Source: Ostreococcus lucimarinus
Taxonomy: Eukaryota
Length of the DNA: 64,000 bases
Assembly: GCA_000092065.1 (NCBI GenBank)
Contig: CP000596.1
Direction: 5' to 3' (one strand)
Part shown: positions 1,620 through 24,554 of the stretch, in pieces
Layout of the letters: every line of letters begins with the position of its first letter
Numbering within the stretch: the stretch's first letter is position 1
Notes under the pieces: generated by a model
Database searches by the model: none
Told to the model about the DNA's origin: nothing
What the model saw: the letters and a program-made list of their open reading frames with translations, nothing else
Position numbers and translations under genes: made by a program

Positions 1620-1737
1620 GGTGATTCGGCGAGCGCTCGGCGTCGCGATGTGACGACGCCGCGACGACGACGAAGGAAGGCGCGAATGAATGAAGGCGCG
1701 AAGGCGCGAATGAATGAAGGAATTAAAGACTAGGAAT

Positions 1738-3501: not shown

Positions 3502-3540
3502 TAACCTCCTCGCGACGTTCGTCGACGACGTCGCGCGGCG

Positions 3541-4182: not shown

Positions 4183-4251
4183 GCGACGTCGAGTACGAGT
4201 ATTCGCGATTTTGTAACAACAACAACAACAAGCGACGAGCGACGACGCCGC

Positions 4252-5058
4252 TCACTCGCGGAACACTTCGTCGAAGCCGGCGATTTTGGGGACCAGGTAG
4301 ACCAAGATGTGCCGCAGCGCCGCGCTCTCGCCGTACGAGACGGGCACGGAGACGAAACTTTTGTTCCCGCCGCTCGTCGTCTGCAAATTCACAAACAATC
4401 CGCCGCTGCCGTCGGGCATGGGTTCAACCTTGAACGCCTTGTTCACGTTCCCTCGATTCGCCCCCCCCGCGCCCGGATCGTGAAAGAACGAGCACGGCGC
4501 GTTGCTCGCCATCCTATCCGCCAACTCGGCCGCCTCCGTCGCGCTCAGCATGAACGACCCTTTATTCCCCCAATCGTACTGTCGAGGCGCCGTCGCGTTC
4601 GCGAGTTCCAGCAGCACTCCTCCCGCGCGTTTCATGATCCGTCGCCCGCTCGCGTCGCTCTCGAACGTCGCTCGAACCGCCTTGAGCTTCAACGCGCCCT
4701 TCGTCTTGTACACGCCGTAATCCACGAACGCCCCCGTCCCGGACGCCGCGCGCTCGCTCGAGCGCGTCGGCGGCGCGCGGACGCCCGGTCCCGGTCCCGG
4801 CGAAGCGCCCGCGAGCGGCGCGCCCGCGAGCGGCCCGAACGACGCGCCCGTCGAGCCGCCGTTGTTTGAATTCATCATCGACGCCATCGCGCGCGTCACC
4901 GACGGCGCGCGAATGCGAGCGCATCGACGACGAGACGCGAGCGACGCGATTGATGCGGTCGCGAACGACGCCGCGGACGCCATCGGGAATCGCGACGGGA
5001 CGGGAGCGGACGAAACGCGGAAGAGGCTGAATGTGAGGCGGTTGGTTGGCGCAAACAT
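4252..5058 (-). CDS. Whirly family ssDNA-binding protein (organelle-targeted)
   Basis: 268 aa. The C-terminal KAFKVEPMPDGSGGLFVNL ... SVPVSYGESAALRHILVYLVPKI matches the Whirly fold motifs. The N-terminus is S/A/R-rich, like a transit peptide. ATG at 5058..5056. Confidence 0.8.
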   Translation of the reverse strand: MFAPTNRLTFSLFRVSSAPVPSRFPMASAASFATASIASLASRRRCARIRAPSVTRAMASMMNSNNGGSTGASFGPLAGAPLAGASPGPGPGVRAPPTRSSERAASGTGAFVDYGVYKTKGALKLKAVRATFESDASGRRIMKRAGGVLLELANATAPRQYDWGNKGSFMLSATEAAELADRMASNAPCSFFHDPGAGGANRGNVNKAFKVEPMPDGSGGLFVNLQTTSGGNKSFVSVPVSYGESAALRHILVYLVPKIAGFDEVFRE

Positions 5059-5102
5059 TTTGTAGACATTGAAACTGTTTCATTGATTGATGTCCAGGTG
5101 TT

Positions 5103-5765
5103 TCATTGCAACGCCACCGCGCTTCGTCGCGATTGGGCGACGCGCAATTGAAACGACGCGGCGATCTCCGCGACGGCGCGCTCGTCCTCGCGACCGCTCT
5201 TCGTAACGCACCGCGATTCGATCAGCAGGTGCGCGAGTTTTTCGTGTAAATCCGGCGCGACGATCGTTTTCATCGCTTCGAAGAGTTCGGACATCGATTT
5301 CGGCGCAGGAAGGGACGTCGGTACCGCCGAGTCGGTTTCCGGCGCCTCTGTCGACGGCTCGCGCGACGGAGCATCCAGCGCGCGGTCCCTCTCATCCATC
5401 GGAAAGCCAAGGAGTTCGCTGAGCGTTCGTCTAACAATCTGCGCGCCGGAAAGGATTTCCTCGTGGTCTTCCCTCCACGGCCGCTGCGCCGCGACGATCG
5501 GTCCGCGAACGAAAAATTCCTGTTCAGCCCTGTCGCGTCCGCGTCGACGAGCGTAATCGTCAGTCACACGCGCGCGAGCGCCGCAAACGTTCGAGGCGAA
5601 CCGGCGTCGTCTCCGCGTCGCGCAGACTAGAGTGCGCACCAGACTCCAGTTCGCCTGCACTCCGTGAGTACGGGTTTCGTGAAAAGAAGTATGAAGGAAC
5701 TCGTTGGATACTGTTCCGACAGCGCGGAAAGGCGCTTTTTTAAACCGCGCGTCCTCGCTGCCCAT
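5103..5765 (-). CDS. Hypothetical protein. The start is uncertain: the open frame continues to 6020, but the codon there is TTG.
   Basis: First in-frame ATG is at 5765..5763. The C-terminal half (ELFEAMKTIVAPDLHEKLAHLLIESRC) looks protein-like. No recognised domain. Confidence 0.35.
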   Translation of the reverse strand: MGSEDARFKKAPFRAVGTVSNEFLHTSFHETRTHGVQANWSLVRTLVCATRRRRRFASNVCGARARVTDDYARRRGRDRAEQEFFVRGPIVAAQRPWREDHEEILSGAQIVRRTLSELLGFPMDERDRALDAPSREPSTEAPETDSAVPTSLPAPKSMSELFEAMKTIVAPDLHEKLAHLLIESRCVTKSGREDERAVAEIAASFQLRVAQSRRSAVALQ

Positions 5766-5950
5766 CGAGCGAGGACGCGTTTTTTTCCAGCCTTGTTCAG
5801 CGCCTCGATATCGCTCGGCGTCAACGGCGGCGCGCGACCGCGCGGTGGTACTGGCCGCCGCCGCGTCGCGTTCGCCGCCTCGCGATCGTTTTCGCTCGCG
5901 CGCTTCCGCGGGCTCGCCCTCGTCATCGCGCGCGTCGCGCCGTGGCGCGC

Positions 5951-5988
5951 GTCGTCTCGTCGCGTCTCGTCTCGTCTCGTCTCGTCTC
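5951..5988. repeat. (GTCTC)n microsatellite, about 5-6 units
   Basis: gtcgtctcgtcgcgtctcgtctcgtctcgtctcgtctcgg, seen directly. Lies in the 5' region of gene 5103..5765. Confidence 0.7.
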
Positions 5989-6124
5989 GGACCCGAACCG
6001 CCGATTGGACAATCGGACAATCGGGTATGGTCATCAGTGAGACGTTTTTTAATAAAAATGTCCGAAAAGTGGGTGTGGCGATCAGTGAGGAGGTATAAAT
6101 GACAAAGTTACGATTGATAGGGTT

Positions 6125-6131
6125 AAAAAAA
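6125..6131 (-). terminator. Pol III terminator (T7 run) downstream of tRNA-Gly
   Basis: aaaaaaa on the plus strand equals TTTTTTT on the gene strand, 8 nt past the tRNA 3' end. Confidence 0.6.
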
Positions 6132-6138
6132 GATAATG

Positions 6139-6415
6139 TGCAACCACCGGGAATCGAACCCGGGTCTGGTTATTAGGAGAAAATCGACGTTAACTATGGG
6201 TCAGTTTCCATTTTCCATTTATATCCTTTCGAGCTGTTTATCGAGCTTTTCGGACGGAACACTCACCTCCTGCGCGCTGCTATTTTGTATGCAGTGACGG
6301 CTGTTCGCCGTCAGGAGACCATCTCGCCCGAGCTCGACCTCGGGCGACGACTGGATCATACGCTGCTGAAAGTGCCGATTGGCAGGCAGGTATTCTACCA
6401 CTAGACCATGGTTGC
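6139..6415 (-). tRNA. tRNA-Gly(GCC) interrupted by two intervening sequences. Exons: 6415..6380 (acceptor, D-arm, anticodon loop), 6274..6267 (CGCAGGAG) and 6165..6139 (variable loop remainder, T-arm, acceptor plus discriminator A).
   Basis: RC 5' part GCAACCATGGTCTAGTGGTAGAATACCTGCCTGCCA. Middle part GCAGGAG. 3' part ACCCGGGTTCGATTCCCGGTGGTTGCA. The spliced 71-72 nt product folds as a cloverleaf nearly identical to vertebrate tRNA-Gly-GCC. A and B boxes are present. A T7 terminator lies 8 nt downstream. Confidence 0.5.
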
Positions 6416-6600
6416 CTAGGTCTTCCGCACGCTTGACTACGTGCTTCGGATGTTAGGAACAGCGATAAACTTCAAGTCGGAGAATGCGAACGTCAATGCG
6501 ATCGCGGTGTTACGGGTTGGTGGTAATTACGAAATCATTGATTTCGTAGTAATAATAGCAAAATTCTGGACTAACTATTGTGATTCATCTCTTCATCGGC

Positions 6601-6624
6601 CTAAATACACAGAAAACAAAACGA
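6601..6624 (+). repeat. 24-nt motif ctaaatacacagaaaacaaaacga. Copy 1 of 2; copy 2 is at 9306..9329.
   Basis: Exact 24/24 identity between two intergenic sites, in the same orientation. Confidence 0.5.
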
Positions 6625-6683
6625 ACCGGGTGCGCTCGGTGAAGTCGGACCGCCGATTGGTTGGTTGGTTGGTTGGCCGCGCG

Positions 6684-7064
6684 ATGAGATTAGTTGTCGG
6701 CGCGCGCGTGGACGGATGGACGGACGGACGGAGAGACGCGCCCTTCGCGATGGGTCGACCGTACGCGTGGAGACGCGGCGCCGGCGCGAGCGCGCGACGA
6801 CGAAAGCGCGGCGACGGCGACGACGACGACGACGAGCCCGGACCGGTGATGCGTCGGTTCACCGAACTCGCGCGCGCGCATCGATCGGCGGAGATGGTTC
6901 GAGCGGCGGCGGCGGTGGCGGCGGCGGCGAACGCGACGAGCGACGAACGCGAAGAGACGCGGCGCGTGCGCGTCGAGCGGACGCCGAACGGCGAAAGCGT
7001 CGTCGTCATGGACGACGCGAAGGAAGGCGATGATGGTGACGACACGGCGGCGAAGAAGACGTAG
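6684..7064 (+). CDS. Small hypothetical acidic protein (126 aa from the first ATG)
   Basis: ATG at 6684 within track ORF 6441..7064. The C-terminus is DE-rich. Weak support. Confidence 0.3.
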   Translation: MRLVVGARVDGWTDGRRDAPFAMGRPYAWRRGAGASARRRKRGDGDDDDDEPGPVMRRFTELARAHRSAEMVRAAAAVAAAANATSDEREETRRVRVERTPNGESVVVMDDAKEGDDGDDTAAKKT

Positions 7065-7130
7065 AGCGAGGTCTCGGACGACGATCGATCGAACGCCGGC
7101 TGCTGAAAAACGTTCGCCGCGCGACGCGAA

Positions 7131-7190
7131 ATGATTCATTCATTCATACATACATTCATTCATACATTCATACATTCATAACGAACAAAA
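7131..7190. repeat. (CATT/CATA)n microsatellite in convergent 3' UTR space
   Basis: attcattcattcatacatacattcattcatacattcatacattcata, seen directly. Related GAATGA runs occur at 1683-1717, 9350-9400 and 12226-12240. Confidence 0.7.
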
Positions 7191-7276
7191 CGCACAAAAT
7201 TGTTGTTATAACAAGGACAACGTGATTAGATAAATTAATTATGTAGGACATCAACGTTCAACGTTCTTTAACTCTG

Positions 7277-9190
7277 TCACGCCGCCGTCGGCGTCGACGA
7301 CGTCGACGCCGCGGTGAGCGCGGCTTCGACTTGCTCGCGAAGTTCTGCTGCCTCTTCGGCGCTGCGACCGTACTTAACCTTCATCTGCCAGGTGATGGCT
7401 TTGCCGCACCGCTCGACGCTCTCGCCCTGATCCCAGAGCTGCATCGCTCGGGCGACTGCTTTCTTTTGCGCCTCGAAGAGCTCCGGATCCGTCGGATTGG
7501 CGTCGGCCTCGACCTGCGCTTCAGTGTAACGAGTGCAAATGTCGTGACTGTACGCGGCGACGGTGGACGAAATACCTGTTGGATCGAACAGCGCCGCGAC
7601 TTCGGCGGCGGCTCTGATGCCGTCAGCCTCCGTCTCGACGGACATCATGTCCTCGATGCCCCCGGCGATGCCGTCGGCCGTGCTGACGACCTGATCGATG
7701 TTGTCGTAGGCGTCCTTCAGCTCTTCCGCAGTTTTCTTAACCGCTTTCGCGGTGTCACCGATCTTGTCAGCGGCTTTGGCGCATTTCGTCGCGGTTTTGA
7801 CTCCGATCTTAGCCCCCGTCGTCGCGCCAGAGCTCGCACCGAGCGTGGCGAAGAAGGCAACCATCTCGAGCGGGCCCATGATCTGGTCGGTAACGACCAG
7901 CGCGCACGTGGCGTCGTCGGCGGCGGCACCCATGCCGCATTCGACCCATCGATTAGCGTTCACTGTAGGAGGTTCGCCCCAGCAGACGAACGCCGCGCCG
8001 ACGAATCCCTCTTTGCAAGGCTCGTAGCAGAGGCCGGCGTCGTACTCGTAGCCGGGGGGACAGGTCGCCGGCTCCATGCCTGGGGAGAGGTGAGTGTGTT
8101 TCGTGCAGCTCGGGGCGATGCCGCCCTCGTAACCTTGATCCTGGCAGTCCATCGTGCAAATATTTGATCCAAAGTTGCTGTATCCGCTCCTGCACTTGTC
8201 GTAGCACAGACCGAGGTAGTCCTCCTTGCCTTTTTTAGTGCAAAGATCTCCGCCACACCGCACACTGAACGTGGACCAGCTCCATTCGCACTCGATGGTA
8301 CCGACGCCGCGACCGTAACTCGCGTCGGGGTTGGAACATAACAATCCGTGGTCGTCCCAACCGCTCGAGCACGACTGATGACAGTCGTAGCCAAAGCGAT
8401 AATAACCAGCGCCGAAGTTTGAGCACTTGTCGTAGCAATACAAACCACCGGCGATGATTTCTTTTTTGCCATCGTCGCCGCAGTACTGCGGAATGATGCC
8501 GTCGCGCGTGTACGATTCGCGCCAGCAAAATCCCGAGCCTTCGTCGACTTCTTGGGCGTACTCGCCGATGATCTCGCTCGACCAACTAGTGACGGTGCCC
8601 GCGTGTTCGACCACGTTTCCTACCCAGCCGAAATTGAGTCCGAGCGCGGCCGTGTCGTTCGACGCTTTACGGCGTTTGTCGATTTTCTTACGCTTTCGCG
8701 CCGTCTCCTTCTCCCGGTCGCGCGCCTCCGCGACGCGCCTCTCGAGCGCCGCCTGAACCATCGATTCCTTCGACGCGCACGTGCCATTCGTCGCGACGGC
8801 CCTCTCCGCCGCGGTGAGATCGGACAACTCAAAGGTCGACTTTCGCAGCGCGCGCTCCGCCTCCGCTTCGACGTCCGCAGCCTTCGCCGTCATGACGGCG
8901 ATCGTCTCGTTGAGCATCGCCTCTCGCTGCCTCGCGTTCACGGCGGCGCCCAATCGCGCGCGAGGCGTCGGCGTCGGCGTCGGCGTCGCGTCGACCGCGC
9001 GCGCGACGCGCGGCGTCGTTCGCGTCGTCGGAATCGTCGTCGTCGTCGTCGTCCCGCGTCGACCCGCGAGCGCGACGACCGCGCACGCCGCGACGCCGAG
9101 CGCGACGACCGTCGTCGTCCCGGCGTCGACCGCGCGTCGGTCCCGTCGCGATCGTCGCAACAGCGGATCGCGCTCGCCCGGCTTCGACAT
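7277..9190 (-). CDS. Type II membrane protein. Layout: N-terminal TM, Thr/Pro-rich stalk, coiled coil, then Cys-rich repeats (GLYCYDKC / GLCYDKC / GLCYEPC).
   Basis: Track ORF 7277..9277 starts at GTG. The first ATG is at 9190 (MSKPGERD...). Hydrophobic segment TTTVVALGVAACAVVALAG. Repeated C-Y-[DE]-[KP]-C units. Family not recognised. Confidence 0.6.
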   Translation of the reverse strand: MSKPGERDPLLRRSRRDRRAVDAGTTTVVALGVAACAVVALAGRRGTTTTTTIPTTRTTPRVARAVDATPTPTPTPRARLGAAVNARQREAMLNETIAVMTAKAADVEAEAERALRKSTFELSDLTAAERAVATNGTCASKESMVQAALERRVAEARDREKETARKRKKIDKRRKASNDTAALGLNFGWVGNVVEHAGTVTSWSSEIIGEYAQEVDEGSGFCWRESYTRDGIIPQYCGDDGKKEIIAGGLYCYDKCSNFGAGYYRFGYDCHQSCSSGWDDHGLLCSNPDASYGRGVGTIECEWSWSTFSVRCGGDLCTKKGKEDYLGLCYDKCRSGYSNFGSNICTMDCQDQGYEGGIAPSCTKHTHLSPGMEPATCPPGYEYDAGLCYEPCKEGFVGAAFVCWGEPPTVNANRWVECGMGAAADDATCALVVTDQIMGPLEMVAFFATLGASSGATTGAKIGVKTATKCAKAADKIGDTAKAVKKTAEELKDAYDNIDQVVSTADGIAGGIEDMMSVETEADGIRAAAEVAALFDPTGISSTVAAYSHDICTRYTEAQVEADANPTDPELFEAQKKAVARAMQLWDQGESVERCGKAITWQMKVKYGRSAEEAAELREQVEAALTAASTSSTPTAA

Positions 9191-13242: not shown

Positions 13243-13650
13243 TTAATCTCTACCCTCCTCGCGGCTCTTCGCGGCGGAGATTTCTTCGACTTCTTCCCAG
13301 GCAGCCGGGCAGTCGTCGGTGCACTGCTTCGCCGCCGCGATGGCGGCTTCCAACGCCGCCTCCATCTTTTGCATGCGCGCCGTGTTCACCTTCTTCGTGA
13401 CTTCCTTCATGCCCGCGGCCGCGGCTTCGATTTCCTTCAACGTCTTCGCATCGACTTGACCCGCCGCGCGCGCCGCGGAGATCGTCTTCTTCGTCGATTC
13501 GATGAACGCCTTGTCCGCCGCCGAGATTTCGACCTCCTTCATGGAGTCTTGTCCCTTGTCCTTGGACGCCGCGCTCAATTCCTCGACGTCGTCCCAAGCG
13601 ACCGCGCAATCATCGACGCACTCCTCCGCCGCCTTCAGCGCCGCTTCCAA
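13243..13650 (-). CDS. CP12-like protein with a tandemly duplicated AWD-VEEL core
   Basis: Two units: CVDDCAVAWDDVEELSAA and CTDDCPAAWEEVEEISAA. 13650 is a TTG codon, and the first ATG is at 13542, so the true start is uncertain. Confidence 0.5.
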   Translation of the reverse strand: MEAALKAAEECVDDCAVAWDDVEELSAASKDKGQDSMKEVEISAADKAFIESTKKTISAARAAGQVDAKTLKEIEAAAAGMKEVTKKVNTARMQKMEAALEAAIAAAKQCTDDCPAAWEEVEEISAAKSREEGRD

Positions 13651-13909: not shown

Positions 13910-14268
13910 GCTTATCCTAGATCGCGTTCGCGCGCGCGAATGCGCCGCGTCTCGCGCGCGTCGCGTCGCGGTTCGAGCGGTTCGCGCGGTCGCGTCGCGG
14001 TCGTCGTCGTCGCACCTTGCGCGAGAATCGCGTCGACGCGGGGCGCGCGATCGCGGCGGTCGTCGTCGTCGGCGTCGCGAGCATGGCGGGCGCGGTGTGC
14101 GGGGGCGGGCGCGGCGCGGCGCGTTTACGGCGACGTGGGGGGTGTGTTGATGGTGGTTTCGAGTGTTCGAATATGGGCGCGTGGGGTTAGGGTTTTGAGT
14201 GGCGCGCGGTCGATCGGTCGGTCGGTCGGTCGTCTACGATTCGTGAAGTGGGTGTCTACTGGTCGCGT

Positions 14269-16602
14269 CTACGCCTGGCGGTCGATCATGTACGTCACGG
14301 CGGTGACGACGTCGGCGGCGCGCTTGACGACGGTCTTCTCCATCTCGCTGGCGTACGGCACGGGGGCGTCCTCCATGCACAGACGCATCACGGGGGCGTC
14401 GAGCTCGTCGAAGAGGTTTTCGCCGACGAAGGCGCTCACGGTGGCGCCGACGCCGCCGGTGCGCGTGGATTCGTCGAGGATGACGAGCTTGTGCGTGCGC
14501 TGAAGACTGGTTTGGATGGTTTTCCAATCCACGGGCTTCATGCACGTGAGCTCGATGAAGTCGGCGTCGATGCCCTTGGTGTTGAGCTCCGCGATGGCTT
14601 CCTCGGTTTCCTTGACGCCGTGGAGGTAGGTGACGATGGTGACGGCTTTGTCGTTCTTGACGGATTCGTCGCTCGCCAAGTGGTGAACGGTGGACTTGTG
14701 GAGCGGGAGGAAAGAATCTGGCGTCACCGGTCCGCGAGATTTCATCATCTTCACCGGAAGCAACAGCACGCCCGGGCCGTTGTCGCGAATCATAGACTTG
14801 GCCAAGCCGTACGCCTCTTGAGGCTTGGACGCCGAGCAAATCTTCAAGCCGGGAATGCCCATGATGTACGCGTGGAACGGTTGCGAGTGTTCGGCGCCGA
14901 GAGATTGGTTCGGGGCGGTACCACCGGCACCGATGACGGTCATGGGCATTTGAAATTGCCCTCCAGTCGTCGCGTACGTGTTCCCGGCGGACGAGAGCTC
15001 AGCCATGCCGTAAATACCAAAGTTGGCATTCATGAGCTCGACGATGGGGCGGTAGCCGTTCATGGCCTCGCCCAAAGCCTTGCCCATGAAGTGACCTTCG
15101 TCAATGATTTCATCCGCCGCGCGAAGCGTGCCGAAGGCTTGCTGCGTGTTGGCTGGAATGTTGTAAGAAGAACCCGCTTGGAGATCTTCAGCGTGCGCCA
15201 CGCACGTCGGGTCGCGCAACATTTCTTCAAGAATGGCGAGGTTGACGGCGTCACCGATGGAGATCCCGCGCGGATCCAAGCACATCGCGCGAAGAGCTTC
15301 GATGCGTGCCTTGAGCGCGGCGAGCGTCTCCGCAGGCACGATTTTCTCCGTCACAGCCTCCGCCGAGGCGAGACCTTCGACGGGTTCGCGCGCGGCGTAG
15401 TCGACTTTGCCGCTCGGATCGGGGTACTCGAGCTCGGCAGCCAAGTTGGCGGGCGGCGGCGGAGAAGCATCGGCGAACGCCAAAGCGCGCTGAACTTCTT
15501 CCTTAGCCTTGGCAGTCTGTGCCCCGAGGTCGATGCGCTTGGCGTCGGCAGACTCTTCGAAAATCTTAATCGGGTCGCACTCGGCGCGCGCCCAACGCTT
15601 TTCATCCTTGCGGTTGCGCTCGTGCTCCGGATCAGCCGGAGAGTGCCCGTTGAATCGGAAAGTGTGCACTTGCAAGATCGCCGGACCTTTCGTGCGCACG
15701 TGCTTGATCGCTGCGCGACCGACGCGCAAGACATCTTGCACGTTTTGACCATCGACGAGCACGCCCGGAACGCCGTAGTGCTTGCCTTGGTTGAAAACCT
15801 CTTGGTTCGTCGCGACATCCTTGGTGAAGGTGTTGATCGCGCGACCGTTATCGATCACCAAGAAAAGAATCGGCAAGTTCTCCTTCGCCGCCGCGTTCAA
15901 GCACTCCGCCATGCGCCCGTTTTGGGCGCCACCTTCGCCGACGAAGACGACGGTGACGCGGTCGTGCGCGTCATCGCGCCCGAGCATCTTGTCGAGAACG
16001 ATGGATCGCGCCGCACCGACCGCGTACGGCAATTGCTCCGCGACGAGCGCCCATCCACCTTGAAAGTTCGTATCCATGTCGTACACGTGCATCGACCCCC
16101 CGGTACCTCGGCACGTGCCACCGTCCTTACCGAACAACTCCGCCATGACGGCGCCGCTATCCACGCCGCACGCCAAGGCGTGGCAATGGTCGCGGTAGTA
16201 GGAGTGCTTCAAATCATCCTTACGGATCGCGTCTGCCAGGAGCGCCGGAATCGACTCTTGACCGTTGTCAAGGTGCATGAAACCGCGAATCTTACCCGCC
16301 ATGTACGCTTGGTTGCACTCGTTTTCAAAGTCCCGGCACAACTGCATCGTGTAATACGCCTTATTCAAATCCTCATCACTCAAGTCCTCGCATCGCTTCA
16401 ACTCCTCGTCCGTCGCCCCAAACTCTTCCTTCAACACTTGCTTCGCCTTATCCCACGGCGTCTCGATGCGAAACCGCTCCAAATTCGCCGGCGGTCCCTT
16501 CGTCTTCGTCGCTCCCGCGCGCGCCGCCGTCCCTCGTCTCGCCGTCTTCGCGCCTCGCGCGACGTGCGCGCTCGTCGCGGTCGCCCGCATCACTCCTTGC
16601 AT
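14269..16602 (-). CDS. Pyruvate-dehydrogenase-type 2-oxoacid dehydrogenase E1 with alpha and beta subunits fused in one polypeptide, plus an N-terminal targeting-like sequence
   Basis: 777 aa. The N-terminal half is E1-alpha: TPP motif GGWALVAEQLPYAVGAA..VVFVGEGGAQNGR and FRFNGHSPADPEHER. The C-terminal half is E1-beta: MTVIGAGGTAPNQSLGAEHSQPFHAYIMGIPGLK with a transketolase-C-like tail. ATG at 16602..16600. The 887-aa plus-strand ORF opposite is antisense noise. Confidence 0.85.
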   Translation of the reverse strand: MQGVMRATATSAHVARGAKTARRGTAARAGATKTKGPPANLERFRIETPWDKAKQVLKEEFGATDEELKRCEDLSDEDLNKAYYTMQLCRDFENECNQAYMAGKIRGFMHLDNGQESIPALLADAIRKDDLKHSYYRDHCHALACGVDSGAVMAELFGKDGGTCRGTGGSMHVYDMDTNFQGGWALVAEQLPYAVGAARSIVLDKMLGRDDAHDRVTVVFVGEGGAQNGRMAECLNAAAKENLPILFLVIDNGRAINTFTKDVATNQEVFNQGKHYGVPGVLVDGQNVQDVLRVGRAAIKHVRTKGPAILQVHTFRFNGHSPADPEHERNRKDEKRWARAECDPIKIFEESADAKRIDLGAQTAKAKEEVQRALAFADASPPPPANLAAELEYPDPSGKVDYAAREPVEGLASAEAVTEKIVPAETLAALKARIEALRAMCLDPRGISIGDAVNLAILEEMLRDPTCVAHAEDLQAGSSYNIPANTQQAFGTLRAADEIIDEGHFMGKALGEAMNGYRPIVELMNANFGIYGMAELSSAGNTYATTGGQFQMPMTVIGAGGTAPNQSLGAEHSQPFHAYIMGIPGLKICSASKPQEAYGLAKSMIRDNGPGVLLLPVKMMKSRGPVTPDSFLPLHKSTVHHLASDESVKNDKAVTIVTYLHGVKETEEAIAELNTKGIDADFIELTCMKPVDWKTIQTSLQRTHKLVILDESTRTGGVGATVSAFVGENLFDELDAPVMRLCMEDAPVPYASEMEKTVVKRAADVVTAVTYMIDRQA

Positions 16603-16999
16603 CGTTTGAGGTTTCCTTCGAGTTCTCGCGCGCTCGTTTCCTGCGTTCGCGCGTCGATCGCTCGTCAGTCGACGGATAACGCGCGCAAGATTGTCCCCGC
16701 CGCGATCGAGATTCGCGTCGCGCGCGCGCGCCGCGCGCGTCGCGGCGCCGCGCCGACCGCGGCGTCGGCGCGAGCGCTCGATTCGCGCGCGTTCGCGTCG
16801 ACCGTTCGCGTCGAGAGTCGCGCGTCGCGCGCACCGAGACGACGAGAAGTGCCGCGCGCGCCGCGGAATGCGAGGTTTCCGCGAGTCAAAGTCCCCGTCG
16901 CTGAGTCCTGACTCGTCGATTGGACGGACGGGATAAAAAGCGGCTCGAAAAGCGCTCGCGGGACGCGCGACGACGCCCGCGCGACGGACAACACGATTT

Positions 17000-17837
17000 C
17001 TACACGATGGCTAATGAATTAGAGTGCACGAAACGCACGGCGTAAAAGATCCACGCCAACGGACCGACGATCCACACGAGGTTGGCGGCGAAGACGACGA
17101 CTTTGCTCGTCGCGGACGCGCCGACGTCGTAGCGATTGTAGCAATAGTTGCAATAGTACATCACGGTGCCGTAAAACATTTGATAATTCATCACGATGGC
17201 GACGATGCCGACCGAGCGCGGGGTGAAAGACGCGATCATGGGGACCTCGGGCCAGGACGTGACGGCGATGGAGAGCGCGACGGTGGGGACGAGCATGGTG
17301 AAGCCGTTGCCGACGTCTATCCAAAAGCTCCACGACGTGTGCTGGACGTACGACGGATCGAGACTGGCGTACTGCGCGAACACGATCGACCAGTGCTTCA
17401 GCGACAGCGCTTGCGCGAGCGTAATATCTTCAAATAAACATAACGGTCTCGGGAGCACCTGCGCGCGCGTTCGTCATCGCGCGTCGTCAGTCCGTTCGTC
17501 GTCATTCGTCCCGTTCAAACGTCGCCGTCCCGCGCGCGTCCTCCGCGTCTGCGCGTCCGTTCGCCTCGCCATCGCGCACCCTGTTCCCGAACTTTTTCAG
17601 GTACCCGCGGTGTAGCTTTTGCACGTTCGCGCGGTGCGTCCAGAGCGCGATCTCCCACACGCATATCAGCGCGTTCACGGCGTTGAACAGTAACAACAGC
17701 GCCAGCTTCGGGTTCGCCTCGCGCGCGAGCGCCTCGACGACGCTCGCGCTCGGCGGCGCGCGCGATCGCGCGTCGGCGCACACGAACGGGAGCCAGAGCG
17801 TCGCGACGAAGCCGCAGACGTAGACCGCGGCGAGCAT
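17000..17837 (-). CDS. EBP/EXPERA-family (sterol isomerase-like) multi-pass membrane protein in two exons: 17837..17580 and 17458..17000
   Basis: Exon 1 ends AAC AGG|GTGCGC. The 121-nt intron has a CTGAC branch and ends CGCGCAG|. Exon 2 starts exactly at the track ORF's GTG codon (17458). The junction is phase 0. The conserved acidic residue in ICVWEIALW and the segment WSIVFAQYASLDPSY resemble EBP motifs. Confidence 0.55.
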
Positions 17838-18074
17838 CGCGCGCGGACGCGAACCGTCGCGCGCGCGAGAGTGCGGACGGACGCTCGAGTCGAGCCGACG
17901 CGCGGCGACGGGACAGCGCGACGCGGCCGCGGACGGGACGTCCGACGGAGGCGCGCGACGCGCGAACGCGCGGTGAGAATATTTTAGCGACTCGACTCGG
18001 ACGGGACGACGCGCTCGGCGCGCGCGACGCGACGGACGCGGGCGACGAGGCGCTCGGGAAGACGAGCGGACACA

Positions 18075-19163
18075 ATGGCGTTTTCGCCGACGGCGCGCGC
18101 GACGCCGGATGGGTTGGACCTGGTGCTGTTCGACGTCGACGACGACGACGGTGGGTTTGATTTTAGCGACCACGGCGAGACGGGGACGGACGACGTGCCG
18201 TTCGACGCCGACGCGTGGGACGACGTGCTGAATGCGTTCGACGCGTATCGCGAAGACGCGAGCGCGTTCGACGTCGACGCGTTCGGATGCGCGGCTTGGC
18301 CGGACTTGGACGGTGAAGCGAAGGACGACGATGATTTCGATGGTTACGATGCGTCGCGGCGAAACGCGGCCAAGGCGGTGCGCGAACACGTCGCGAGCGC
18401 GCTGAGAGACGCGCTGAGCGCCTGCGAGAGCGAATTGAGCTGGGCGAGCGACGAGGGCGAATGGGAGACGAAGAGACGCGAAGCGGAGGATGCGGCAAAG
18501 GCGATCAAGTACGTGCGATCGCGCGTGTACGCGCGATTGCGTGCGCTGGGAGCGTCGACCGACACCGCGACGACGAATCGTTTGAAGATGTTGCGCGACA
18601 TGTTCGTCGCAGAGCTTCGAACGTTCGCCGCGCGCGCCGACGCGCTCGAGCGCCGCGCGGCGGAGACGCTCGTCTCGAAGAACTTATGCTTGAATCTGCC
18701 CGATCCGAAGTTGATGTTGAAGAAGAAGTTCAATACCACACTCACGAGTGTGCTTGATTCGTTCGACGCGGCCTTCGAACACGTCGTGGCCAAGGCCAAG
18801 ACGCCCTCGACCAAGGCGCGCGCCGCCGCATCTCGACAATCTGAACAAAATTCGGGTAACTCAAACGCCGTGGAGCAGCAAACCGCACAGGGAAGACACG
18901 AGACGCACGCGAAGAAGATCTTGTCCGCGTGGCTCTGGGATCATTTCTACCCGACGGACGAGCGCTTGAAACCGATTCCGACGCGCGCGGAAAAAGAAGA
19001 TCTCGCGCGCCAGACGGGATTGACGACGACGCAAGTGGGCGACTGGTTCGTCAACGCTCGCGCACGTTTATGGAAACCTTACATCGAAGGCTTAATTCGC
19101 GGCGTGTATAACGACGCCACGGTGAAGAAAGCGCTCGACTTGCAAGCCGAGGCGGCGGCGTAA
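18075..19163 (+). CDS. TALE-class homeodomain protein (KNOX/BELL-like)
   Basis: The C-terminal LSAWLWDHFYPTDERLKPIPTRAEKEDLARQTGLTTTQVGDWFVNARARLWKP is a three-residue-loop-extension homeodomain. ATG at 18075. Confidence 0.8.
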   Translation: MAFSPTARATPDGLDLVLFDVDDDDGGFDFSDHGETGTDDVPFDADAWDDVLNAFDAYREDASAFDVDAFGCAAWPDLDGEAKDDDDFDGYDASRRNAAKAVREHVASALRDALSACESELSWASDEGEWETKRREAEDAAKAIKYVRSRVYARLRALGASTDTATTNRLKMLRDMFVAELRTFAARADALERRAAETLVSKNLCLNLPDPKLMLKKKFNTTLTSVLDSFDAAFEHVVAKAKTPSTKARAAASRQSEQNSGNSNAVEQQTAQGRHETHAKKILSAWLWDHFYPTDERLKPIPTRAEKEDLARQTGLTTTQVGDWFVNARARLWKPYIEGLIRGVYNDATVKKALDLQAEAAA

Positions 19164-19275
19164 AGCGTTCGCGTCGACGGCGAAGAGTCGCTCAAATATA
19201 ATCACAAAATAATCAACCGCACCGCGCGCGCGGTTCCTCTAGTCGGCGCGCATCGAGTCATGCGGGCCGTCGTAT

Positions 19276-19848
19276 TTAAATGACGAGCGCTTCGTCCGTG
19301 GCGTCTTGCATCTGCGCGTCCCGTTCGGCTTGATACTCCAAGAACTCTTCGCTCGGCTTTGGGTGCTTTTGTCCCTCCTCGCTGTCGTAAAAGTCCTTCA
19401 CCTTGGGAATGTGTTCGGGAACGATCACCTGCCCGACGTAATTCGGATCCGCGCCGTGCTGCTTCAACTTTTCCATCATCTCTTCGTCTTGAATGTTCTC
19501 CGCCCACTGATACGCGGTATCCCCGGCGTTATTGCTCGCGTTCACCTTGGCGCCGAGCTCGACCAACGCGTCCACGCCCTCGCACCACCCCTCGTACGCC
19601 GCGCACATGATCGGCGTCGATCCCGCGCCGTCCACCTCATTCACGTCGACCCCTTCCGCGATCAATCGTCTCACCAGCGTCTCATCGCGATTGAACACCG
19701 CTCGATGAATCTTCATCTCTCCCACCGTGCCTCGCCCTCGCATCGACCCACCGCCGTCCGCCTTCACGCCCACGCACCCGTACCGCTCCGGAAACGGTCC
19801 CTTGACCCGCTTGTACCACGGGTCGATCTCCGTCTCGTTCCCGCTCAT
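19276..19848 (-). CDS. Ankyrin-repeat protein
   Basis: 190 aa. Repeated G-TPLH/AA ankyrin consensus (GAGSTPIMCAAYEGWCEGVDALVELGAKVN). ATG at 19848. Confidence 0.75.
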   Translation of the reverse strand: MSGNETEIDPWYKRVKGPFPERYGCVGVKADGGGSMRGRGTVGEMKIHRAVFNRDETLVRRLIAEGVDVNEVDGAGSTPIMCAAYEGWCEGVDALVELGAKVNASNNAGDTAYQWAENIQDEEMMEKLKQHGADPNYVGQVIVPEHIPKVKDFYDSEEGQKHPKPSEEFLEYQAERDAQMQDATDEALVI

Positions 19849-20111
19849 CCCGCGTCGCGTCCCGCGTCGTCGCGCGTCGTCGTGTGCCGACGCGCGCGCG
19901 CACCGCTCGAGCGTTACGCTCGAAAACGCCTCGAAAACGCCTCGGCGTCCGCCGGCGCCGCGGTCGCCGCGCGCGATCGCGCGTTCGCGCGCGCGCGTCG
20001 CGCGACGCCTCGCGCGCGTCGTCCGCGCCGTCCCGCCGCGCGAGCGCGCGTCGAGCGCGCGCCGCGCGCGCGCGAACCGACACTCTGCGAATCAGCGATC
20101 GTTCGCGCGCC

Positions 20112-21407
20112 ATGGGCGTCGCCGCGAGCGCGCGCGCGTCGCGTCCGAGCGACTTCGTCGACGCCGACGACGACGACGCGTGGCGTCGCGCCGACGCGGG
20201 CGCGCGCGCGCGACGAGGGCGCCGCGAGACGAGCGCGGGGTCGTTCAGCGCGATCCCATCGGTGAGCTCGTTCGGCGGCGGATTGATGAACTACGAGCGG
20301 CAGGGCGCGCGCGTCACGCGACGGTCGCCGTCGAACGAGGGCGGTGACGTCGAGCAGGGACTGGCGGACTGGGGGCGGGACGACGCGTCGATCTCGCCCG
20401 GCGCGACGAAGCGCGCGAGCGGGGCGACGCCGGCGCGGGTGTGGGGACGCGAATTGCGCCTGAGCGAGGGCGCGCTGCTGGCGACGCTGAGCGCGGGGGC
20501 GCTGTTCGCGTACGTCGCGTTCACGATGACGCAGGAGGGGGTGTTCAGGAGGGCGACGAAGGAGTTTAAATACGGCGGCGCGGTGTCGCTGTGCACGTGC
20601 CTGGTGTACTGCGCGCTGGCGCAGTGCGAACGCGTCAGTAACGGCGATCACGGCGCGCGAAGGGGGAATTTGAAAGATTACGCGATGTTGAGCGTGATGA
20701 CGAGCGGATCGATGTATCTCACGAACGCGGCGTTGAGTTACATCAACTACACGACGAGAATAGTCGCCAAGTGTTCAAAGGTGATACCGGTGATGATCGT
20801 GGGGACGTTTATGCACGGTAGACGGTATGGATCGGAGGATTACGCCATGTGCGTGTTACTCGTGATTGGGATCACGATGTTCACCATGGGTGATGTGGAT
20901 TCGTTTCCGAATTTTAATTATCGCGGGGTGACGTACATCACCATCGCGCTGTTCACGGAGAGCACGGCGGGGAATTTTGAGGAACGACGCTTCTTCAACA
21001 TTCCTCAACCAATCTCGCACTGCGAGGTGGTGTTTTACGTCAACGCTATCGGAAGCGCGTGGATCGCGCTCGGTTTGTTCGCCTCGGGCGAGCTCTTCAC
21101 CGCCGTCGCGCACTTGCTCGGCGAACCCGACGTGCTCGCGGCGATTTGCGTCGCCGCCGCCTTCGGATACATCTCCGTCACGTGCATCTTGCTCTGTCTC
21201 CGTCACTACGGCGCCACGAACACCGAGGTGATCAAAGCCGTGCGTAAGATGCTATCTTTGGCGTTATCACTCGTGGTGTACCCGAAACCGATGGGGTGGA
21301 AGTACGTCGTCGGCACCGGCGCCACCGCGACGGCTCTGTTCGGCCTGTACAAAATCAAAATGCGACGCCTTCGTCTCGCCGGCGGCTCCATGGAGGCCGC
21401 CAAATAG
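20112..21407 (+). CDS. Nucleotide-sugar transporter of the UAA / SLC35B-like family
   Basis: About 10 TM segments. Motifs LTNAALSYINYTTRIVAKCSKVIPVMIVG. The track ORF starts at a GTG (19884). The first ATG is at 20112. Confidence 0.7.
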   Translation: MGVAASARASRPSDFVDADDDDAWRRADAGARARRGRRETSAGSFSAIPSVSSFGGGLMNYERQGARVTRRSPSNEGGDVEQGLADWGRDDASISPGATKRASGATPARVWGRELRLSEGALLATLSAGALFAYVAFTMTQEGVFRRATKEFKYGGAVSLCTCLVYCALAQCERVSNGDHGARRGNLKDYAMLSVMTSGSMYLTNAALSYINYTTRIVAKCSKVIPVMIVGTFMHGRRYGSEDYAMCVLLVIGITMFTMGDVDSFPNFNYRGVTYITIALFTESTAGNFEERRFFNIPQPISHCEVVFYVNAIGSAWIALGLFASGELFTAVAHLLGEPDVLAAICVAAAFGYISVTCILLCLRHYGATNTEVIKAVRKMLSLALSLVVYPKPMGWKYVVGTGATATALFGLYKIKMRRLRLAGGSMEAAK

Positions 21408-21583
21408 TTCCATTTCTCTGTAGTTCTATTCTTTTCGACCTCGTTCGTCCCGACGGCGCGCGTCATCGATCGACCGAGCGACGTCCTTCGCGTCCCGGAC
21501 CAACCGTCTCGCCGCGTCCCGCGTCCCCGACCTCACTCGTCGTCGCGGCGTCGCCGCGCGCGCACCGCCGCGCGCCGCGCGCC

Positions 21584-22252
21584 ATGGGTCCCGCGCGCGT
21601 GCACCGCGTGTTCCGCGACGCGCGGCAGACGAATCAGCGCGACGCGGCGGAGTTGATTTCGATTCAACCGCTCGACTACGAGCAGTGGCTCGCCGCGTGG
21701 AGCGGAAACGAGGGCGAGGATCCGTTTTCGAGCGGTGCCGCGACGGCGGCGACGGCGGAAGAGCTCGCGCGCGTCGTGGTGCGCGCGCGCGAGGGCGGGG
21801 AGAGCGCGGACGCGTGCGCGATATGCTTGACGGCGATGCGGGACGGCGACGAGGAGTCGCGCATGCCTTGCGGACACGGATTTCATCCGCGGTGCGTCGA
21901 GAAATGGCTCGCGCGGTCGAAGTGCTGCCCGCAGTGTCGACGGTCGTTGGCGGACGCGGAGAGCGCGCGCGGTGAGGCGAGGGCGAGTGGGAGGGACATA
22001 CCCGAGGACGCGGCGCCGACGCCGGCGAATATACCGTGGTCGGCGACGAGCGATCGAGAGTCGAACGAAACGACGGAAATCGAGCGGCGGGAGCGGTATG
22101 CATCGACGCTACCTGTGCTTCATGAGCTGAGGAGGGAGTTTGAGTTAGTGTTGAGGCGAAACGTCGTAGATAGTGAGGTTCCAGAGCGCGGGGCGTCGCG
22201 CGTCAAGGAGGCGCTGCGAGGGCTGCTGACGAACGAGACGCCGCAGCCGTGA
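21584..22252 (+). CDS. RING-H2 zinc-finger protein (E3 ligase-like)
   Basis: CAICLTAMRDGDEESRMPCGHGFHPRCVEKWLARSKCCPQCR. The first non-overlapping ATG is at 21584. Confidence 0.7.
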   Translation: MGPARVHRVFRDARQTNQRDAAELISIQPLDYEQWLAAWSGNEGEDPFSSGAATAATAEELARVVVRAREGGESADACAICLTAMRDGDEESRMPCGHGFHPRCVEKWLARSKCCPQCRRSLADAESARGEARASGRDIPEDAAPTPANIPWSATSDRESNETTEIERRERYASTLPVLHELRREFELVLRRNVVDSEVPERGASRVKEALRGLLTNETPQP

Positions 22253-22312
22253 GGGCGTGTGAACTGCGCTGTATATCAATGTAAATTAAGTTTGAGGAGT
22301 GTTATGTACAAT

Positions 22313-24241
22313 CTATCGACGGCTTCGTCGCGTCGTCGGTGCTTTGTGTGTGCCCTCGACTTCGACGGGCGCAGGCGTCGTCGCTTCCACGAGCGCGTCG
22401 AGGTCCACGTCGTCGATATCCATCTTGTCGACGGCTTCTTGCGCGTTGGCGGCATCCGACGGCGGCGCTTCGAGCAAAGCTGCCAAAAATATATCCTCGT
22501 CCGCGCTCGACTTCTTAATGTCTAACGAACCCCAGCCGAGGAACGAGAAGACTTCGGTGCACGAGCACGCGTCGGCGCGAGTCTTGCGTTTCTTCCGCGT
22601 GGGCGACATCGCACCGTCTAAATCCTGTAAGACTTCATTCAAACGGAACGATCGCGCACCACCTTGACTGGTGAAAATTTTGCTTTGTGAGCTGTGAGAA
22701 TCTTGACTCGTCGCGGGCGAATGCGCCTCTTGAAGGTCGTGAACGATTTCTTTCGCCGCTTCATGAAAATCCTCGGGCATGGATTTGTCATTCAGAGAAT
22801 TTTGTTTCGGCGTCGTTGCGAACCGCGGGGTCTCCTCGAACTCCATCGCCGTCCCTTCTTGAACTTTGTCCAACTCTTCGAGCTGTTCGACGTCCACCAT
22901 CGCCGGTTTAGCGTCTAAAGCCGTGCGCCGCGACATGACGACTTTGTGACGAACCTGGAACTCGGCGCCGAGGCGTCCGGCGATGCGGAAACTTTGCTCG
23001 GCGGTGTCCCACTCTTGGCGCGAGCACGCGACTTCGGCGATGCGCAGAAATCCCGCGGCAAATTCTCGAAGTTTCGAATCTCGCATGAGCTTGCGAACGT
23101 TCTTCCAAGCCTTAGTGCTCTGATCGTTACGAAGTTGACAAAGCACTCGGTTCGTCGCGAGGATGGGCTCGAGCGCGTCGAGCGCGTCCGAGACTTCGTC
23201 TTCGGCCGAGTTCGCGATGACGTTCAGGCCGCACGAATACAGCTCCGATGCACCGCCGAAATGACCGACCCAAGAGAACACGTTCCCGATGGTCAAGCAC
23301 ACGCACGATCGATCGTACGCGCTCAAATTGTCAAATCCGGCGAGGAGAAAGGCGTTGTCGAGCCAAGTAACCTTGGACTGGTCGACCTGCTTCTCATCAG
23401 CGCCCGCATCAGCCTCGGGCGAGGTGCTGGCTTTTTGTGATTCCATGTTTTTCATCACGAAAATGGTCTTCGCGCGCTCGAGGAATAATATGCGATCGCG
23501 GTACATGCGCTCGTCGTCGCGCCCGGCGAAAAGCACGCCCGAGCCGTACAGCATCGACTGACGCGCTCGCACCCAATCCTCCTCTTCTATGCACTTCGAC
23601 GCGCTCGGTCGAGCGGTGACCGCGGTCAACTCATCCGCCGAGTCCCCTTCGAAATCTTCGCTTCGAATCGAACCGTTCATTTGCTTCCCCTTGAGCGTCT
23701 CCGCCGTCTTCGCGTACTCCTCCGCCAAATCGCCCGCCGCTTCCGTCTCCTTCAAGACGATTCCCATGCGTTCGTGCATCTTCGCCCCATCCGGCGCGCA
23801 ATCCAACGCCGCTTCCGCATCTCTCAACGCCTCGCACCACCGTCCCGATCGAAGCCGCGCCACCGCCCGTCCACTCAGCGCCGTCCCCGCGCACGCTCGA
23901 TACGCCACCACCGCGCACTCCCCTCGCTTCGCCGTCGTCCCTCCCTCCAGCATCCCGCACGCGTTCGCCACCAGCGCCGACACCTCCGCGCGCCCGTTCA
24001 TCCACGCTTTCACGCATTTCTTCAGGCACTCGTCGTACGCCGTCACCGCGCGATCGTGGTCCCCCTCGCCCAGCGCGCGCTCGCCCCTCGCCAGCGCGTC
24101 CAGCGCGTCCAGCAGCGTCCCCTCCCGCGCGCTCGCGCTCGCCGTCGCCCCGCTCCCGTCGCGCTCGATCCTGGCCGCCAGTTCCACCAGATCGACGTTC
24201 AGCGCGCGCGCGCGCTCGAGCGCGCGCTCCAGCGCCGACAT
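22313..24241 (-). CDS. Hypothetical TPR/helical-repeat protein
   Basis: 642 aa, ATG at 24241. Helical-repeat-like composition. No specific family recognised. Confidence 0.55.
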   Translation of the reverse strand: MSALERALERARALNVDLVELAARIERDGSGATASASAREGTLLDALDALARGERALGEGDHDRAVTAYDECLKKCVKAWMNGRAEVSALVANACGMLEGGTTAKRGECAVVAYRACAGTALSGRAVARLRSGRWCEALRDAEAALDCAPDGAKMHERMGIVLKETEAAGDLAEEYAKTAETLKGKQMNGSIRSEDFEGDSADELTAVTARPSASKCIEEEDWVRARQSMLYGSGVLFAGRDDERMYRDRILFLERAKTIFVMKNMESQKASTSPEADAGADEKQVDQSKVTWLDNAFLLAGFDNLSAYDRSCVCLTIGNVFSWVGHFGGASELYSCGLNVIANSAEDEVSDALDALEPILATNRVLCQLRNDQSTKAWKNVRKLMRDSKLREFAAGFLRIAEVACSRQEWDTAEQSFRIAGRLGAEFQVRHKVVMSRRTALDAKPAMVDVEQLEELDKVQEGTAMEFEETPRFATTPKQNSLNDKSMPEDFHEAAKEIVHDLQEAHSPATSQDSHSSQSKIFTSQGGARSFRLNEVLQDLDGAMSPTRKKRKTRADACSCTEVFSFLGWGSLDIKKSSADEDIFLAALLEAPPSDAANAQEAVDKMDIDDVDLDALVEATTPAPVEVEGTHKAPTTRRSRR

Positions 24242-24554
24242 CGCGGCGCGGCGTCGCCGATTGTTTCAGAATTTAATTTGATTGAAGAGTTCGCCTCGCG
24301 AATGAAACGCGCTTCGCTCGCGATGCGCGTCCCTGGCGCGTCGCGGACGCGCGTCGAGCGCTTTGAAGCGTCGCGCGCGCGCGTCGCGCGTCGTTCGAGG
24401 CGCGCGCGCGCGTCGCGCGTCGTTTTGGCGACGCGGCGACCGACCGCGATGGCGCGTTGCGCGCAGAAAAAATCTTTGTATGGGTAAACAGTGTGGACGT
24501 TAAAACCAGCGGGACATCCCTCGCGCGCGGCCGCGCGCGCGACGGCAGACGGCG

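Follow-up and report, generated by a model that had tools for sequence, protein, structure and literature searches.

The E1 component of the pyruvate dehydrogenase (PDH) complex is, in its heterotetrameric form, assembled from separate alpha and beta subunits, and in such split E1s the transketolase C-terminal (TK-C) domain is the region that docks E2. A single chain that carries both subunits is not a new kind of protein: fused E1s are already annotated in diatom genomes as precursors of "PDH E1, alpha and beta subunits", and other members of the family have been named by JGI with both the alpha and the beta COG descriptions. The present analysis concerns one such gene from the green picoalga Ostreococcus lucimarinus. 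It lies within a stretch of 64,000 nucleotides of contig CP000596.1 (assembly GCA_000092065.1), referred to here as the window, where positions 14269–16602 of the minus strand hold one uninterrupted open reading frame (ORF) of 777 amino acids (aa). We favor, with moderate confidence, the interpretation that this protein is a chloroplast-targeted, single-chain PDH-type E1 belonging to an old algal family, which originated from a fusion of plastid-type alpha and beta genes independently of the fusions present in bacteria.

The fused-E1 name is also borne by a protein of Phaeodactylum tricornutum (UniProt B7FZE1, gene PDH1), which is abundant in proteomes. One study identified it by 24 peptides, with a 1.62-fold increase when nitrogen was depleted (PMC5070409); a 4.16-fold rise under low nitrogen, validated by parallel reaction monitoring, was reported separately (PMC9153171), and the protein is listed among the PDH-complex proteins that respond to CO2 (PMC8670125). 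JGI model 46387 ("Dehydrogenase, E1 component") was considered as the Phaeodactylum fused gene and set aside, since model 20183 is at least equally indicated, and neither assignment serves as evidence here. Literature searches on fused E1 in algae, on Micromonas, Ostreococcus and Nannochloropsis, and on the plastid PDH found no paper on the fusion itself. It is not discussed in Dorrell 2017, in Kroth 2008, in the Nannochloropsis genome paper or in a review of diatom triacylglycerols, while Wisecaver 2013 deals with aceE and PNO in dinoflagellates and is unrelated to the fused E1.

A single reading frame encodes both subunits

This ORF represents a real gene in the nuclear genome of a mamiellophyte green picoalga. 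Its ATG is the earliest start possible after the in-frame upstream stop, and its GC content at codon positions 1, 2 and 3 (GC1/2/3 of 0.62/0.43/0.78) represents the coding-like signature typical of a GC-rich genome. The same 777-aa gene is annotated on a public Logan contig by an independent gene caller. The features of the locus are as follows.

14269..16602, minus strand: complete single-exon coding sequence of the fused E1 alpha-beta, 777 codons plus stop (ORF, GC1/2/3, domains, independent gene caller)
16483..16602, minus strand: residues 1–40, N-terminal presequence, probable chloroplast transit peptide (rich in Ala, Arg, Thr and Gly, no acidic residues; predicted with a confidence of about 28–30 over residues 1–35 of the structural model described below)
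15454..16353, minus strand: residues 84–383, E1-alpha module, i.e., the diphosphate-binding (PP) domain for thiamine diphosphate (ThDP), with catalytic His320-Ser321 (Pfam E1_dh, E 2e-46; TIGR03182, 275 bits; PDHA1 alignment; Foldseek)
15847..15939, minus strand: residues 222–252, variant ThDP/Mg2+ motif G-E-G...(27 residues)...D-N (PDHA1 alignment; the canonical form is GDG...NN)
15265..15453, minus strand: residues 384–446, inter-module linker with the motif ELEYPDP..DY and predicted helices 411–421 and 424–442 (family alignment A1; structural model)
14749..15264, minus strand: residues 447–618, pyrimidine-binding (Pyr) domain of E1-beta, with Glu502 and His572 (Pfam Transket_pyr, E 4e-16; PDHB alignment; invariant columns)
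14326..14658, minus strand: residues 649–759, TK-C domain of the beta module (Pfam Transketolase_C, E 2e-27)
14248..16911, plus strand: antisense ORF of 887 aa, not a gene (GC1 peak of 0.77, 16% Arg, no Pfam family)

The original prediction, made from the letters of the window, had described a single 777-aa ORF that joins E1-alpha and E1-beta of the PDH type, and this description is confirmed by the ORF itself, by the Pfam and PDB matches considered below, and by the presence in the translation of the peptides quoted at the time (GGWALVAEQLPYAVGAA, GHSPADP, and IMGIPGLKICSASKP). Its dismissal of the overlapping 887-aa ORF was likewise borne out: the GC content of this plus-strand frame peaks at codon position 1 (0.77), Arg makes up 16% of its residues, and a Pfam search returned no family match, for which reasons we treat it as antisense noise.

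It could be argued that the fusion is an artefact of the gene model, in which two neighbouring genes, or exons with a missed intron or stop between them, are read through by chance. Nothing speaks for such an artefact beyond the a priori expectation that an E1 has two subunits, and we consider its probability negligible. The frame is unbroken and has a coding signature, and both the sequence and the length of the linker are kept across phyla. Furthermore, P0140, a transcript-derived protein of Bathycoccus prasinos, is colinear with the window protein through the alpha-beta junction (81% identity over 736 aa, with a single one-residue gap). P0140 (800 aa) is also present among the transcripts of the Marine Microbial Eukaryote Transcriptome Sequencing Project (MMETSP), where it is labelled "type:complete", and dozens more MMETSP transcripts with this label, from stramenopiles, haptophytes and diatoms (e.g., Florenciella), encode a fused E1. 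Colinearity with these complete transcripts leaves no hidden intron or stop between the halves, and the Phaeodactylum protein bearing the fused annotation has been detected at the peptide level by the 24 peptides mentioned above (PMC5070409). Thus, in place of the separate subunits of a heterotetrameric E1, there is one ORF and one transcript.

Domain architecture and catalytic residues

Three Pfam domains follow each other along the chain in the order E1_dh, Transket_pyr, and Transketolase_C, and the same three are precomputed for all full-length relatives of the protein. In a PDB sequence search, human PDHA1 matches residues 74–396 and human PDHB residues 447–770, each with an E-value of about 1e-41. 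The two modules are joined by a linker of about 60 residues, whose motif ELEYPDP..DY is common to green algae, stramenopiles, and haptophytes and which shows hardly any length variation and few indels in alignment A1 (columns 540–600), an alignment of 16 family sequences.

Judging from the alignments with the human subunits, no catalytic landmark of a ThDP-dependent E1 has been lost. The catalytic pair of the alpha module, His320-Ser321, is equivalent to alpha-His263 and alpha-Ser264 of the human enzyme; in the beta module, Glu502 corresponds to the ThDP-activating human beta-Glu59, and His572 to the catalytic beta-His128. The ThDP/Mg2+ motif is present as a conservative variant, G-E223-G...D251-N252, where human PDHA1 has GDG...NN. 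E223, D251, N252, His320-Ser321, Glu502, and His572 are all invariant in alignment A1; the diatom representative of the family, P0159, has GDG at the position where the 16 sequences of A1 have GEG. Two additional regulatory phospho-serines of mammals, sites 2 and 3 of the mitochondrial E1-alpha, are replaced by E328 and F259.

An AlphaFold2 (AF2) model of the monomer is of moderate quality, with a predicted local distance difference test (pLDDT) score of 71.6. Block means of pLDDT are about 76–88 over residues 401–460, which include the linker helices, and mostly 84–94 over residues 621–740, with one block at 71 (residues 711–720). In Foldseek comparisons, the alpha module superposes on human PDHA1 (1ni4_A) with a TM-score of 0.75 and a root-mean-square deviation (rmsd) of 3.2 Å; the beta module reaches a TM-score of 0.77 against PDHB, but with an rmsd of 8.2 Å. 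Over its full length, the model can be aligned from end to end with ThDP enzymes that are single-chain homodimers, at TM-scores of about 0.5–0.58.

Distribution of the fused gene

More than 100 full-length fused homologues were found, with identities to the window protein of 63–99%, and of 63–90% for the fused members outside its own 90% cluster. Sequences that are 99% identical occur in marine metagenomes, and the cluster P0002, which contains a UniParc entry, is 90% identical. The Bathycoccus protein is 80% identical. P0013 is 70–71% identical, and its 90%-identity cluster includes a fragment from Prasinococcus capsulatus, which places the gene in a Prasinococcus-like lineage. Members from Tribonema, Nannochloropsis, Pelagophyceae, Chrysoparadoxa, Fibrocapsa, Florenciella, and Calcidiscus are 64–67% identical, and those of a diatom clade (Triceratium, Odontella, Attheya, Epithemia, Chaetoceros, Pseudo-nitzschia, Leptocylindrus, and others) 63%. 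Mean column identity between green, stramenopile, and haptophyte members is 65%. In a HMMER search of 1.84 billion representatives clustered at 50% identity, the family collapses to one full-length representative, P0159, after which there is a gap: the next fused proteins have at most 35% identity, and single subunits 36–44%.

By these comparisons, the window protein belongs to an old and strongly conserved family of algal proteins, present in Mamiellales, a Prasinococcus-like lineage, ochrophytes (diatoms among them), and haptophytes. One of the two origins proposed in the original prediction, a lineage-specific fusion, is not supported, given the presence of the same gene in all these groups. 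Microsynteny is also preserved across genera of Mamiellales. When the region 17000–24500 of the window is compared with positions 170–8408 of Bathycoccus chromosome OZ117109.1 (locus L082), the gene order is seen to be kept: an ankyrin-repeat gene, a KN-homeobox gene (18075–19163, plus strand, in the window), then the fused E1.

A side observation concerns the Bathycoccus gene model at this locus. The model (P0012; L082 6001–8408, 790 aa) lacks 12 residues of the TK-C domain relative to P0140 (800 aa), and the locus does not translate directly into the P0012 product. An intron has probably been mis-called in the assembly annotation.

Targeting and localization

The N-terminus had been described as organelle-targeting-like, and the present data support that description: a 40-aa extension rich in Ala, Arg, Thr, and Gly contains no acidic residue before E42 and ends right before the start of the mature protein, NLER.RI.TPW, which is conserved in all green members. 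Targeting signals were counted over distinct sequences of those full-length members whose N-terminus extends by 35 residues or more. In lineages with complex plastids, a hydrophobic signal peptide with [ASGC][FWY] after it is present in 79 of 105 distinct N-termini, as in LVAQASAF|APA, ASAQAF|T, SVSAF|S, and ASAF|AP. Such a combination is the bipartite plastid signal of the ASAFAP type known from diatoms and related algae. It is absent from all 29 green-lineage members, whose N-termini are of low hydrophobicity and have a median acidic-residue count of zero over the first 40 positions. Plastid localization in complex algae is well supported by these predicted signals, and by orthology the window protein and the other green members would also be plastid proteins.

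An alternative is that the enzyme is mitochondrial in the green lineage, the Arg- and Ala-rich extension being a mitochondrial presequence and the protein serving the mitochondrial PDH or a related complex. A basic, acid-free presequence of this composition does fit mitochondrial import as well. In our opinion this alternative is improbable, given the bipartite plastid signals of the orthologues from diatoms, other ochrophytes, and haptophytes. In addition, both halves of the protein are sister to plastid-type E1s, while the human mitochondrial E1 is 32–33% identical and groups elsewhere than the family, and the mammalian regulatory phospho-sites 2 and 3 are absent.

Evolutionary origin

The alpha and beta halves were analyzed separately in neighbor-joining (NJ) trees with 200 bootstraps. 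The algal fused family is monophyletic in both trees, each time with 100% bootstrap. It is sister to, and not nested in, the clade of plastid/cyanobacterial-type E1s (bootstrap 70% for alpha and 99% for beta, on a long branch and by a distance method). The nearest named relatives outside the family are, for alpha, the chloroplast E1-alpha of Trifolium and the E1-alphas of the apicomplexans Cardiosporidium and Lankesteria, and, for beta, the E1-beta of Plasmodium and E1-beta-type proteins of Picochlorum and Artemisia. A count that does not depend on trees gives a similar picture: 7 family-consensus residues are exclusive to the family and plastid-type E1s, whereas none is shared exclusively with bacterial fused E1s and none with bacterial split or mitochondrial E1s.

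The other origin proposed in the original prediction was horizontal acquisition from bacteria, where fused alpha-beta E1s do exist (e.g., Leptospirillia P0171, L017, and L018). A recent import of an already fused bacterial E1 is very improbable and, in our view, effectively refuted. In a scan of one genome per species over 185,579 prokaryotic species, nothing exceeded about 39% identity apart from the two contig fragments considered below, and the HMMER search of 1.84 billion representatives set the same limit. The best prokaryotic relatives are 27–39% identical and nearly all are split pdhA/pdhB operons, two of which (L003 and L019) continue with an E2-sized ORF. A fused ORF is present in 2 of the 80 best prokaryotic loci, and these two are no closer to the algal family than the split ones. 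In the NJ trees, the algal family is joined by none of the 10 bacterial fused E1s sampled, whose identity to it is at most 36% per half. The phylogenies of the separate halves, which had been suggested as a check, revealed no link to bacterial fused E1s; both halves group with plastid/cyanobacterial-type PDH E1. The host-like GC3, the synteny with Bathycoccus, and the presence of the gene across algal phyla speak against a recent import as well.

Several of the bacterial fusions have different unfused E1s as their neighbors in the trees. P0173 groups with Parvibaculaceae (100% in both halves), the beta half of P0171 with Acidithiobacillus (89%), and the beta half of P0168 with Dehalococcoidia (72%). 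It follows that alpha-beta fusion arose repeatedly and that the algal event was independent of the bacterial ones. The likely course is that the E1-alpha and E1-beta genes of the plastid type, i.e., of cyanobacterial lineage, became fused.

Three prokaryotic entries deserve a separate comment. L001 (JAYPBG010000357.1, 3.8 kb, from a "Gammaproteobacteria" metagenome-assembled genome, MAG) holds a fragment 61% identical to the algal fused E1, and L025 (JAPOJR010000330.1, 0.6 kb, from an "Alphaproteobacteria" MAG) a fragment 81% identical. Both were rejected as close bacterial relatives: these are tiny contigs in MAGs, most simply explained by algal contamination, and they probably represent eukaryotic-algal sequence in GTDB species genomes. 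L008 (CALRMU020000004.1, from the MAG "Synechococcus sp. UW140") is nearly equal to L007, from a Fimbriimonadaceae MAG, in pdhA/pdhB position, ORF layout, and identity values, which suggests a mis-binned or mislabelled MAG and not a cyanobacterial locus.

Functional implications

If the favored interpretation is correct, the protein would be imported into the chloroplast, where its transit peptide of about 40 aa would be removed. Because the fusion recreates the order PP, Pyr, TK-C on one chain, as in transketolase and SucA, a homodimer equivalent to the alpha2-beta2 assembly is naturally expected. Two chains would pair, each ThDP active site lying where the PP (alpha) module of one chain meets the Pyr (beta) module of its partner, and the alpha2-beta2 architecture would thereby be reproduced. 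Pyruvate, as the presumed substrate, would be decarboxylated on ThDP, the acetyl group would be passed to the lipoyl arm of a plastid E2, and the resulting acetyl-CoA would supply fatty-acid synthesis in the plastid.

Several observations weigh against this interpretation. The curated NCBIfam cut-offs for PDH equivalogs are missed: TIGR03182 (alpha) scores 275 bits against a threshold of 393.85, NF006667 209 against 321, and NF008854 204 against 454. The Mg-binding motif is altered (GDG to GEG, NN to DN). The stem of the family is very long, at 0.55 and 0.67 substitutions per site, whereas its crown is shallow. Taken together, the long stem, the scores below the cut-offs, and the altered motif are the pattern expected if the function shifted after fusion. 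The trees themselves are distance-based, with only three plastid-type references for beta and without any named sequence from cyanobacteria or red algae. In the AF2 model, pLDDT falls below 50 over residues 470–575, and for this reason no conclusions are drawn here about active-site geometry or the dimer interface. The green-lineage presequence, taken alone, cannot separate chloroplast from mitochondrion. Finally, B7FZE1 is tied to the fused family by its annotation name and not by sequence, and Phaeodactylum has several further E1 genes (12375, 55035, 20360, 46387, and 20183), so that a separate canonical plastid E1 may coexist with the fused one in diatoms.

Much of this would be accommodated by a neofunctionalized paralogue, a plastid-targeted and active enzyme that uses another 2-oxoacid, or acts as a stand-alone ThDP decarboxylase or carboligase, beside a conventional split plastid E1. 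The long stem with its shallow, strongly conserved crown, the scores under the curated alpha and beta thresholds, the family-invariant changes in the Mg/ThDP motif and near the active site, and the additional E1 genes listed for Phaeodactylum are all in its favor. We nevertheless hold this alternative to be rather unlikely. Every catalytic landmark of a lipoyl-dependent E1 is kept, and the TK-C domain, which docks E2 in split E1s, is among the best conserved parts of the protein. Its closest affinity is with plastid PDH E1 and not with the branched-chain 2-oxoacid dehydrogenase, whose matches in the PDB search are far weaker. Moreover, the diatom protein of this name is listed with the PDH-complex proteins that rise under changed CO2 or nitrogen supply.

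A further argument against a paralogue comes from a search seeded with P0249, a canonical green plastid E1-alpha. Among the 120 best matches listed there was no named protein of Micromonas, Ostreococcus, or Bathycoccus, and so no canonical plastid E1-alpha from the sequenced Mamiellales; the matches listed were from core chlorophytes and streptophytes, together with short, probably cyanobacterial proteins. This is a hint that the fused E1 replaces the split plastid E1 in Mamiellales.

Speculatively, the fused protein could be the sole plastid PDH E1 of Mamiellales, ochrophytes, and haptophytes: an ancient joining of the plastid-type subunits would have been followed by a burst of divergence and by displacement of the split cyanobacterial-type E1, and the gene would have passed between the green (prasinophyte) and the red-derived complex-plastid lineages. 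Or else the burst of divergence would mark a change of substrate, and major marine phytoplankton would contain a widespread, abundant plastid ThDP enzyme of a different specificity. We offer this pair of scenarios tentatively.

The gene is recognizable from existing annotation, and to that extent the window adds little new. What remains of interest is how the family works biochemically, that it originated independently from plastid-type subunits, and how patchily it is distributed over green and red-derived algae. Marine primary production is dominated by picoalgae, diatoms, and haptophytes, in which the synthesis of fatty acids and lipids is gated by the supply of acetyl-CoA in the plastid. 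Should the fused protein serve as the plastid E1 of these algae, it would offer a single-gene handle on acetyl-CoA flux. It would also be a tidy case of eukaryotes and bacteria having fused the subunits independently. As a marker gene common to prasinophyte greens and red-derived complex algae, it would bear on the debate about green genes in chromalveolates.

Neighboring loci

Directly downstream of the fused E1, at 13243–13650 on the minus strand, the window encodes a 135-aa protein with a CP12 domain (PF02672, 29 bits against a cut-off of 22.7) and two copies of the motif C..DC..AW[DE].VEE[LI]SAA. It looks like a tandem CP12-like chloroplast regulator, which would adjoin a gene for a plastid enzyme.

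The segment 44000–57700 has a lower GC content (52–58%) than the rest of the window (about 63–67%), with a strong purine skew at 46–50 kb (AT skew 0.24–0.30, GC skew 0.11–0.16). It holds two long ORFs, at 45605–50104 on the plus strand (1499 aa) and at 53340–57701 on the minus strand (1453 aa), for neither of which a Pfam search gave a match. By Pfam, 42502–44112 (plus strand) encodes an SBP-domain (Squamosa-promoter-binding-like) transcription factor, and 57938–59344 (minus strand) an RNA pseudouridylate synthase. Both are ordinary nuclear genes and fit a compact green-algal chromosome.

Comparison with known systems

The fused E1s of diatoms belong to the same family; they are 70–77% identical to P0159, which over the full length is 63% identical to the window protein. 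Domain order, linker, and an N-terminal organelle presequence are common to both. The presequences differ in type: in diatoms, a signal peptide and an ASAF-type motif together make up a bipartite signal for a plastid with four membranes, whereas the window protein has a simple extension resembling a transit peptide. The GDG of P0159, as opposed to the GEG of alignment A1, is a second difference.

The plastid/cyanobacterial-type heterotetrameric PDH E1 of plants, green algae, and the apicoplast includes the nearest relatives of both halves, at 35–41% identity. It has in common with the fused family the catalytic residues, the presumed compartment, and signature residues such as LGAEHSQ in beta. 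It consists of two polypeptides from two genes, whereas the fused family has an added linker of about 60 residues, a very long branch, and scores below the PDH equivalog thresholds. Human mitochondrial PDH E1 (PDHA1/PDHB; 1ni4, 3exe) is the best match among solved structures, with conserved catalytic residues at about 32–33% identity. The human enzyme has two chains and GDG/NN; the window protein has one chain and GEG/DN, with phospho-sites 2 and 3 replaced.

Bacterial fused E1s (640–810 aa; Leptospirillia P0171, candidate division WS1 L017, Armatimonadia L018) have the same alpha-then-beta chain and the same Pfam domains. They are 26–36% identical per half to the algal family, and they are without a targeting presequence. 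Transketolase, SucA/KGD, and DHTKD1 also carry PP, Pyr, and TK-C in this order on one chain, but these belong to different families, with 12–15% identity to the fused E1. The likeness of the fused E1 to transketolase, SucA, and DHTKD1 is a convergent restoration of the ancestral domain order.

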